Shown here one piece after another: positions 26,518 to 27,101 of a DNA stretch of 64,000 nucleotides (positions are counted from its first letter, which is position 1; every line of letters begins with the position of its first letter). The translations under genes were made by a program, and so were the position numbers. The DNA comes from a virus. The notes beneath the pieces were generated by a model that was given only the letters and a program-made list of their open reading frames with translations, was not told the origin of the DNA and searched no databases. The stretch covers positions 73,445 to 137,444 of the IMG/VR virus record IMGVR_UViG_3300042314_001189. One strand, written 5' to 3'.

Positions 26518-26564
26518 ATAAATTTGCATTATTGAAAAATGTTTAGTACATTTGCAATGCAAAC

Positions 26565-26635
26565 GGCTCTATGATGTAACGGCAGCGTAACGGTCTCTAA
26601 AACCGATAGAGTGGGTTCGATTCCCACTAGAGTCA
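26565..26635 (+). tRNA. amber suppressor tRNA (anticodon CTA)
   Basis: GGCTCTA/TAGAGTC acceptor, anticodon arm CGGT-CTCTAAA-ACCG, T arm GTGGG-TTCGATT-CCCAC; own TAnnTTTG promoter at 26547. Confidence 0.85.
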
Positions 26636-26636
26636 C

Positions 26637-26747
26637 ATGGAAAATCAAGGTAAAAGAAAAGACCAAATAGAAACATCTGAAAAAGCTTTATTTTTCAGTA
26701 TAATCGGATTTTTGGTATTATTATTGATACTTATTATTACAAATTAA
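26637..26747 (+). CDS. 36-aa single-TM peptide
   Basis: MENQGKRKDQIETSEKALFFSIIGFLVLLLILIITN*. Confidence 0.5.
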   Translation: MENQGKRKDQIETSEKALFFSIIGFLVLLLILIITN

Positions 26748-26756
26748 AAAAAAGTT

Positions 26757-27101
26757 ATGAAGTAGATTAACGAAAAACTTAGAGTTGTCACAAGACGTGA
26801 CTTATCATTACCAACACAAGCCGTGCAATCAGCACATGCTGCCATCGATTTCCAACATGCTCATCCTAAAGAAGCGACAGATTGGCAGACAAAATCAAAT
26901 TATCTGGCATTATTGACAGTAGCAAATGAAGAAGAGTTATACAAACTCATAGACAAGGCTACGATTAGAGGAATTAAATATACAATATTCCGTGAGCCAG
27001 ACATCAATAACGAAATTACCGCAATAGCATTTGAACCATGTGACGCTAGTAGAAGATTAACTAGTGGGTGTCCTTTATTGGGTAAAAATAACAATAACTA
27101 A
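26757..27101 (+). CDS. Pth2-like peptidyl-tRNA hydrolase with in-frame UAG at codon 3
   Basis: MK*INEKLRVVTRRDLSLPTQAVQSAHAAIDF...FREPDINNEITAIAF; TAG at 26763-26765; conserved first strand lies upstream of the GTG at 26823. Confidence 0.75.

Follow-up and report, generated by a model that had tools for sequence, protein, structure and literature searches.

The window, 64,000 nucleotides that form the last 64 kb of the 137,444-bp virus record IMGVR_UViG_3300042314_001189 (32% G+C; CheckV completeness 39%), comes from a phage present in many lake-water metagenomes. It contains a gene for an amber suppressor tRNA, tRNA(CUA), followed at a short distance on the same strand by a gene for a hydrolase-like protein of the PTH2 fold whose reading frame carries a UAG at codon 3. 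Features of this locus and its surroundings are listed in Table 1. All 24 tRNA genes that ARAGORN finds in the 137-kb record fall inside the window.

Table 1. Features of the tRNA(CUA)–hydrolase locus and its surroundings, in window coordinates. CDS, coding sequence; ORF, open reading frame; TM, transmembrane; aa, amino acids.
Feature	Position	Strand	Remarks
RF1-like factor without domain 1	24751–25428	+	225 codons; in-frame TGA at 24865–24867 and 24904–24906
Promoter-like motif	26523–26554	+	TTTG-N20-TACATTTG; ends 10 nt before the tRNA
tRNA, anticodon CUA, amber suppressor	26565–26636	+	72 nt; full cloverleaf (ARAGORN)
Hydrophobic TM ORF	26637–26747	+	36 aa; no Pfam match; sits in an insertion
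Start ATG and AAG (Lys)	26757–26762	+	Behind an A-rich leader
In-frame UAG at codon 3	26763–26765	+	Next base A (ATT)
PTH2-fold hydrolase-like CDS	26766–27101	+	111 codons plus TAA
GTG used by the ORF finder	26823–26825	+	After beta-1, inside helix 1; rejected as start
First strong terminator-like hairpin downstream	28117–28140	+	10 pairs and a T run; possible end of the transcription unit
CCA-adding tRNA nucleotidyltransferase	29163–30278	+	PF01743, 123.2 bits; conserved neighbor

The reading frame singled out in a first-pass annotation of the window, ATG AAG TAG ATT AAC GAA and onward to CGT GAC TTA, is present, and it runs in frame through the GTG at 26823 to the TAA at 27099–27101. Translated from the ATT that follows the TAG, it matches the PTH2 family (PF01981) at 36.3 bits (cut-off 23, E 7.2e-09), with residue 4 aligned to profile position 2; translated from the GTG, it scores 28.2 bits and the match begins only at profile position 21. 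The first strand of the domain does lie between the TAG and the GTG, as had been proposed: beta-1 comprises residues 5–10 (KLRVVT), and the GTG is residue 20. An AlphaFold2 model built with 33 relatives is of high confidence (predicted local distance difference score 95.0, predicted template-modeling score 0.88) and places helix 1 at residues 15–32. All 33 sequences share R10 and D12, which precede the GTG, and a GTG start would remove all six residues (K4, L5, V7, R10, D12 and L13) that are invariant among the six closest sequences. We therefore rejected the GTG start, because it removes beta-1 and these invariant residues. No ATG, GTG or TTG occurs from the TAG to the GTG at 26823. Since the whole domain cannot be reached from any other ordinary start, the ATG at 26757 is the only one, and it is cut off from the domain by the UAG.

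Searched with Foldseek, the model retrieves 15 PDB chains at E≤0.001; among the matches listed, all but two of 'unknown function' (1rlk, 2gax) are archaeal Pth2 or human Bit1, and the template-modeling (TM) score to the query is 0.73–0.80 for the eleven best chains. The gene is under purifying selection, with a ratio of nonsynonymous to synonymous change (dN/dS) of 0.13–0.19 in 5/8 pairs of relatives and saturated dS in the other three.

The suppressor call for the CTA tRNA made in the first-pass annotation is borne out by ARAGORN, which reports anticodon cta at tRNA position 33, complementary to UAG, and by a match to the Rfam model RF00005 at 26565–26635 (55.0 bits, gathering cut-off 29). 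Its anticodon arm had been described as nearly identical to that of the tRNA-Trp at 33279, and the four stem pairs and the loop are in fact identical except for C35/U35; the acceptor stem differs, and the discriminator is A versus G. Initiator tRNAs are marked by a 1–72 mismatch and by three G-C pairs beside the anticodon loop. tRNA(CUA) has a paired G1-C72, G2-U71, discriminator A73, a short variable loop and a U-A pair adjoining the anticodon loop, and is thus of the elongator type; for this reason a reading of the TAG by an initiator tRNA was ruled out. Comparison with 207 tRNAs of known type gave no call for its amino-acid identity, the nearest ones scoring low and scattered (Met 17, Trp 11, Arg 8), and no common acceptor stem was found among suppressor tRNAs of 46 distinct sequences. 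In alignment columns that face seven TAGs internal to relatives' domains, E, K, Q or D predominate, with S/T and P also present.

The motif that precedes the tRNA belongs to a class (TTTG, a spacer, TAnnTTTG) which we take to be the Bacteroidota promoter consensus. With spacers of N17-22 it occurs at 28 sites in the window against 6.35 expected, and 0/100 shuffles reach 28. These sites have a common 32-nt extended consensus and lie mostly before genes (for example 25420–25451, 28156–28187 and 61242–61273); the copy before the tRNA is kept in two relatives, L013 and L015. The first-pass annotation had a promoter driving tRNA and gene together. The promoter motif was found, and co-transcription we infer from the motif, the shared strand and the lack of a strong terminator before 28117–28140. 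The small TM peptide had also been counted as part of the unit. It is encoded in an insertion that is absent from the close relatives aligned (L013, L015, L072), and it is probably not part of the system. The sequence GTCAC-AAGAC-GTGAC (26787–26801) was considered as a read-through hairpin and rejected, as it recurs in the closest clade alone, where the codons are conserved anyway.

Contigs from three RNA libraries cover short pieces of the region (24795–24996, 26058–26312, 26746–26910, 27677–28126 and few others). The contig at 26746–26910 spans the TAG with no difference listed there, DNA carry-over being possible. Cover is patchy, and no contig bridges the tRNA and the gene; the one over the tRNA (26493–26585) is chimeric. 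One contig (run X16) joins 26998 back to 26493 (506 back) and represents either an assembly chimera or a variant arrangement. In a nucleotide search of the region against phages, tRNA-Met genes were the sole matches.

Relatives of the locus were collected from IMG/VR (6, then 59), from a set with one genome per species (15, all contigs of metagenome-assembled genomes), from GenBank phages and from JGI metagenomes (the best 80 of 412 relatives). The 164 loci analyzed, six too near a contig end having been left out, form 127 clusters at 90% protein identity. A cluster was called gated if an in-frame ATG is followed by 1–7 codons and then by an in-frame stop shortly before beta-1. By this rule 101/127 clusters are gated, by TAG in 94, TAA in 5 and TGA in 2. 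Codon 3 is the commonest place for this stop (54 clusters), followed by codons 4 and 5 (17 clusters each), and the remaining 13 clusters have it at codon 2 or 6–8; its place is kept across proteins that are 32–90% identical. No ATG, GTG or TTG lies between the stop and the first strand in 45/49 gated loci. In five further clusters the start is normal and TAG occurs solely within the domain, at positions that differ from cluster to cluster, and two loci (L033 and L054) have a second internal TAG. Among the clusters that have no stop by the rule, five loci on inspection by eye do carry an early TAG: L148, L154 and L155 (codon 10), L086 (codon 8) and, ambiguously, phage XacN1.

The type of stop goes with the type of tRNA. 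Of the 71 gated clusters flanked by a suppressor tRNA, 70 have the anticodon that fits their stop: 67 combine TAG with cta, 2 combine TAA with tta (L065 and L176, which appear to be one phage) and 1 combines TGA with tca (L169, tRNA 124 nt upstream). The lone mismatch, L159, has a TAG with a tta tRNA alone on a 3.1-kb contig. Every suppressor tRNA in the flanks (132/132) shares the strand of its gene; among the first 62 clusters the tRNA is upstream in 23, mostly 108–201 nt before the match. In the alignment of L072 a second tRNA-like sequence with a CTA anticodon loop, not called by ARAGORN, can be seen upstream of the gene at about 2770–2850. The gene's true terminator is TAA or TGA in 60/62 clusters. 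In a few cases the hydrolase gene is terminated by the very codon that its suppressor reads, namely TAG in L068 and L082/L083 and, in Agrobacterium phage Atu_ph07 (L096), TGA with a back-up TAG two codons on.

The sequence after the gating stop is also constrained. The next codon is for Ile in 64 and Val in 25 of the 101 clusters (ATT alone in 56), and neighboring positions vary freely. The stop is followed by a purine in 100/101 clusters (A in 73 and G in 27) and by C in the remaining one; in contrast, T or C follows 7/10 of the TAGs that end plus-strand ORFs of at least 60 aa in the phage. In E. coli, amber suppression is favored by a purine next to the UAG on its 3′ side. The first-pass annotation had proposed looking in relatives for the codon-3 TAG and the tRNA linkage and had named homologues that lack them as the case that would speak against it; what we find is an early stop conserved across clusters and matched by the anticodon. 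Judged by these alignments, the TAG is neither an error nor a start called in the wrong place, but is conserved.

Several carriers are in culture. Early stops open the gene in Tenacibaculum phage pT24 (MK-stop), Cronobacter phage GAP32 (MAQ-stop), Xanthomonas phage XbC2 (MAH-stop), Erwinia phage pEa_SNUABM_19 (MTH-stop), Acinetobacter phage ME3 (MT-stop), Ralstonia phage RsoM2USA (ML-stop) and Salmonella phage Arash (ML-stop), and a cta tRNA lies in the flank fetched for pT24, GAP32, pEa_SNUABM_19, ME3 and Arash. Gene callers truncate or skip the gene in pT24, XbC2, GAP32, pEa_SNUABM_19, RsoM2USA, Arash and Atu_ph07; it is unannotated in pEa_SNUABM_19 and RsoM2USA, and in Arash a fragment alone is annotated. 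The early stop explains this truncation or loss. The PTH2 gene of Atu_ph07 begins ATG ATT GGC GAA CAC TTT TGA ATT, has no ordinary start before the first strand, and is annotated from a start after that strand. It is of the canonical Pth2 type (AGK and DSGH), and in IMG/VR its only relative is the phage itself. This TGA cluster has no suppressor tRNA nearby; a tca tRNA is found elsewhere in the genome, at about 430.7 kb, and is an opal suppressor according to the authors of that genome (PMC6102473). In RaK2 and in the T4-like Aeromonas phages 65 and phiAS5 no such early stop was found.

We regard it as probable, on the strength of these comparisons, that synthesis of the hydrolase depends on the suppressor tRNA reading the early UAG. 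The locus would then be a two-part module, consisting of tRNA(CUA) and the PTH2-fold gene behind it, which opens ATG-AAG-UAG. Ribosomes would start at the ATG; at codon 3 their run would end with a dipeptide, through RF1 or drop-off, unless they take in the phage tRNA and complete the 113-residue protein. A conserved stop with a matching suppressor suggests competition between tRNA and RF1 at the UAG, which would set the output; the amount of enzyme would follow that of the suppressor tRNA, and none would be made unless this tRNA is there in processed and charged form. With the stop at codons 2–8, the failed product would be trivial, a di- to heptapeptide. An early stop probably also favors the tRNA: release-factor termination is slow on very short peptides, and slow termination on short minigenes would give the suppressor time. 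When minigenes are shortened from 8 to 2 codons, termination slows and more peptidyl-tRNA drops off (PMC2490762). Unsuppressed, the head of the gene would itself be a minigene, a classic source of Pth substrate. One guess at the purpose is that the dose of hydrolase is tied to suppressor activity and that the enzyme recycles tRNAs or peptidyl-tRNAs tied up by suppression and early drop-off.

A number of observations weigh against this reading. No suppressor tRNA was found in the available flank of 26 TAG clusters (nor of 3 TAA and 1 TGA clusters), many of them on contigs of 1–3 kb. By our rule 21/127 clusters have no stop; since a cta tRNA nonetheless accompanies the gene in 12 of them, gating is not the whole of the relation between gene and tRNA. 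Two cultured phages need no read-through: in mycobacteriophage Bxz1 the gene opens ATG TAG GTG, with the GTG as the annotated start and a cta tRNA 656 nt downstream of the match start, and in XacN1 a second ATG follows five codons after ATG AAG TAG. About 6–10 ordinary ORFs in the record end in TAG and would be extended by 0–48 codons by a strong suppressor. A weak terminator-like hairpin lies inside the gene at 26787–26801. The record represents 39% of the genome, leaving 61% unseen.

The active site adds to these points. The phage clade has the fold of archaeal and eukaryotic Pth2 (2zv3, 3erj, 1wn2, 1xty and Bit1, 1q7s; TM score 0.75–0.80), belongs to the same profile family and retains the R..D..Q..H and T..A motifs; unlike Pth2, it lacks two residues of the GKGK loop and has EPD for DAGxT. 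In the profile alignment with 2zv3, 1rzw and 24bt, the two residues are missing at the GKGK loop and an invariant E77-P78-D79 stands opposite D-A-G. The catalytic residues of Pth2 are, we assume, a Lys in the GKGK loop together with two residues of DAGxT, its Asp and its Thr. Given the altered loop and the EPD, the substrate may therefore differ from peptidyl-tRNA.

Other features point to work on tRNA 3′ ends that would be tied to the suppressor. An HD-like domain of about 190 residues (H..HD.GKP) is fused C-terminally to the hydrolase in pT24 (L009, 2962–3903) and in L053 (5986–6906), and in XacN1 (L090, 946–1806) the same domain precedes the hydrolase domain; its match to the Pfam HD family is weak (E 0.0064), and it was not found in the 137-kb record (39% of the genome). 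A CCA-adding enzyme is a conserved neighbor, and the tRNA is kept in clusters that have no stop. Together with an RF1-like factor that is recoded at UGA or CUU-UAG, the fusions in both orders and the tRNA in 12/21 stop-less clusters raise the idea of a homeostat, in which the early UAG would gauge charged suppressor, the hydrolase would act on its acylated or peptidyl forms or on shed peptidyl-tRNAs, and read-through would be held at a set level. We consider this extension rather unlikely. If true, it would mean a phage-borne toolkit for resetting the balance at UAG between release factor and tRNA.

The RF1-like gene lies 1.3 kb upstream of the hydrolase gene on the same strand. With its two TGAs read through, the translation matches PCRF at 66.4 bits and RF-1 at 81.3 bits, unbroken across both stops. 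The PCRF match covers profile positions 101–194 of 194, the N-terminal domain 1 being missing. The translation has GGQ and a PPT tripeptide, PxT presumably being the mark of RF1. Contigs of the RNA libraries span both TGAs with no difference listed there. The first-pass annotation had put this factor into a two-stop circuit, in which a UGA-gated RF1-like protein competes at UAG and turns the hydrolase off. In favor of that proposal, both TGAs stand at the same positions in 10/13 RF1-like loci although the proteins differ. In three relatives (L021 at 3499, L023 at 3907 and L047 at 2634) the first TGA is a sense codon, and the second site reads TGY CTT TAG C, after which the frame resumes at +1. 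The arrangement is that of the prfB shift site, except that UGA is replaced by UAG, RF1's own codon, and with such a site the factor would fit a role in dealing with or sensing UAG decoding. A +1 frameshift device with UAG for RF1 genes was called unknown in a 2016 review (PMC5009743). The gene occurs, however, only in the window and in 12/74 relatives' loci compared, all of one clade. In terms of gene content it is an add-on of that clade and not a general part of the cassette, which would work elsewhere without it. The 137-kb record has no tca tRNA to read the UGAs, and the factor lacks domain 1; its specificity for UAG is a prediction. The circuit as proposed thus seems unlikely to us.

Restart offers another account of the early stop: the head would be a leader mini-ORF, ribosomes would terminate at the UAG and start again at the adjacent near-cognate AUU, and the proximity of the suppressor would have another cause. 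The codon that follows the UAG is in keeping with this, and speaks to that extent against dependence on suppression, as it is ATT, ATA or ATC, all near-cognate starts, in 64/101 gated clusters and GTG in 1, and in Bxz1 the GTG directly after ATG TAG is the annotated start. It is, however, GTA or GTT in 24 clusters and AAC, AAT, AGC, GGC, GGT, ACA or CAC in 12, none of them start codons. Restart leaves unexplained the match of stop and anticodon in 70/71 clusters and the TGA of Atu_ph07, and it does not reach the TAGs inside the domain in five clusters or the second internal TAG of L033 and L054. We judge it improbable.

Genome-wide recoding of TAG ('code 15'), with the hydrolase gene as one of many late genes that carry in-frame TAGs, would also account for a cta tRNA. 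Phages with this code, in which TAG is read as Gln, carry such suppressor tRNAs, release-factor genes and mostly TAA stops (10.1101/2021.08.26.457843), and the 61% of the genome that lies outside the record could hold further recoded genes. Yet the 137-kb record is densely coding under table 11, with ORFs of up to 2098 codons intact. The 126 ORFs of at least 90 aa end in TAA (110), TGA (10) or TAG (6), and TAG ends real genes, including those at 3880, 10906 and 20849 which the first-pass annotation had cited as normal stops. A scan for an ATG, up to 6 codons, a stop and then at least 60 open codons gave four TAG candidates on the plus strand, and 26763 alone stands. The TAG at 45789 lies in an intergenic promoter (motif 45811–45841) ahead of a real start at ATG 45861, and the TAGs at 54470 and 30602 are followed by ordinary starts after 4 and 7 codons, respectively. 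The earlier claim that the TAG is specific to this gene accordingly holds for the 137 kb, where one gene needs TAG as sense, its reach being the 39% of the genome that the record covers.

The relatives give the same picture. None of the neighboring families, which are the CCA enzyme (18 loci), the RF1-like factor (13 loci) and a kinase-like protein (18 loci), carries a conserved TAG. In most of the 64 flanks compared, treating TAG as open adds ORF cover similar to that of the TGA control; in five (L017, L028, L033, L064 and L077) it adds more than TGA, which would favor recoding. The annotations of cultured carriers use the standard code and list about 590 genes per phage. In the phages of Borges et al., 26–71% of genes are recoded (10.1101/2021.08.26.457843). 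A standard-code stretch of 137 kb with a single gene that uses TAG as sense does not fit genome-wide recoding of that type, which we consider very unlikely here. A decaying gene, with the TAG as a real stop and the remainder a pseudogene or a protein made from the GTG, is hardly credible: gene callers do truncate or skip the gene in seven cultured phages, but dN/dS is low in 5/8 pairs, the stop keeps its place in widely diverged proteins, and a GTG start removes beta-1.

Dependence of the hydrolase on its suppressor would have partial parallels in known systems. As in 'code 15' phages, a phage tRNA(CUA) would read an in-frame TAG and a TAG-containing gene would await phage decoding parts, in AT-rich, TAA-dominated genomes with release-factor genes nearby; there, however, the recoded 26–71% of genes are mostly structural or lysis genes, whereas here there is one gene in 137 kb, immediately adjoining the tRNA and with the stop at codons 2–8 (10.1101/2021.08.26.457843). 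The words 'hydrolase' and 'Pth' are absent from the text of that preprint. With prfB, which encodes RF2, the locus has in common an early in-frame stop that ties the output of a translation-factor gene to its decoding; prfB uses a +1 frameshift and a product that reads its own stop (PMC5009743), whereas here the frame is unchanged, the tRNA is dedicated, and the product has the PTH2 fold, is not a release factor and is not known to act on the stop. The resemblance is one of design. In-frame read-through versions for RF2 are stated to be unknown in the same review. Lambda bar and synthetic minigenes likewise consist of ATG, 1–3 codons and a stop, end poorly and shed peptidyl-tRNA, on which peptidyl-tRNA hydrolase acts (PMC2490762). 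Such minigenes are free-standing and poison cells that are short of Pth; in this locus the minigene would be the readable head of a hydrolase-like gene.

Both parts have been seen before in large phages. PTH2 was noted in jumbo phages by Iyer et al. in 2021, whose main text does not contain 'suppressor' and has 'amber' once, in a reference title (PMC7824862). Two jumbo phages of the standard code, XacN1 (PMC5852040) and Atu_ph07 (PMC6102473), combine a CUA or UCA suppressor tRNA with a gene for peptidyl-tRNA hydrolase. For XacN1, its authors extended the reading frames past the 18 amber stops that end genes and identified no target (PMC5852040), a test that is blind to the target proposed here because the stop sits at the 5′ end of the gene. 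Our literature search, supplementary tables aside (Borges Table S2 and the XacN1 tRNA tables), returned no text that links a PTH2 gene to a suppressor tRNA. Many standard-code large phages have suppressor tRNAs without a known target, as the XacN1 paper states (PMC5852040), and the early stop in a neighboring PTH2-type gene, matched in type to the tRNA, would be a concrete first one. It would amount to a natural single-gene switch worked by a tRNA, between autoregulation in the style of prfB and recoding of a whole genome. Such a switch may show how recoding begins and may offer a compact orthogonal expression gate, and it is testable at once in phages already cultured.

Three minor observations concern other parts of the window. 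Upstream of the RF1-like gene are two tRNA-Met genes, the second of which (24449–24520) scores 27.1 bits, just below the Rfam threshold of 29. A C39-like peptidase ORF at 30623–31174 overlaps the preceding ORF (30334–30714) by about 90 nt in another frame. The gene at 45861–47168 encodes a 435-aa protein with a PARP catalytic domain (PF00644, E 8.9e-27).

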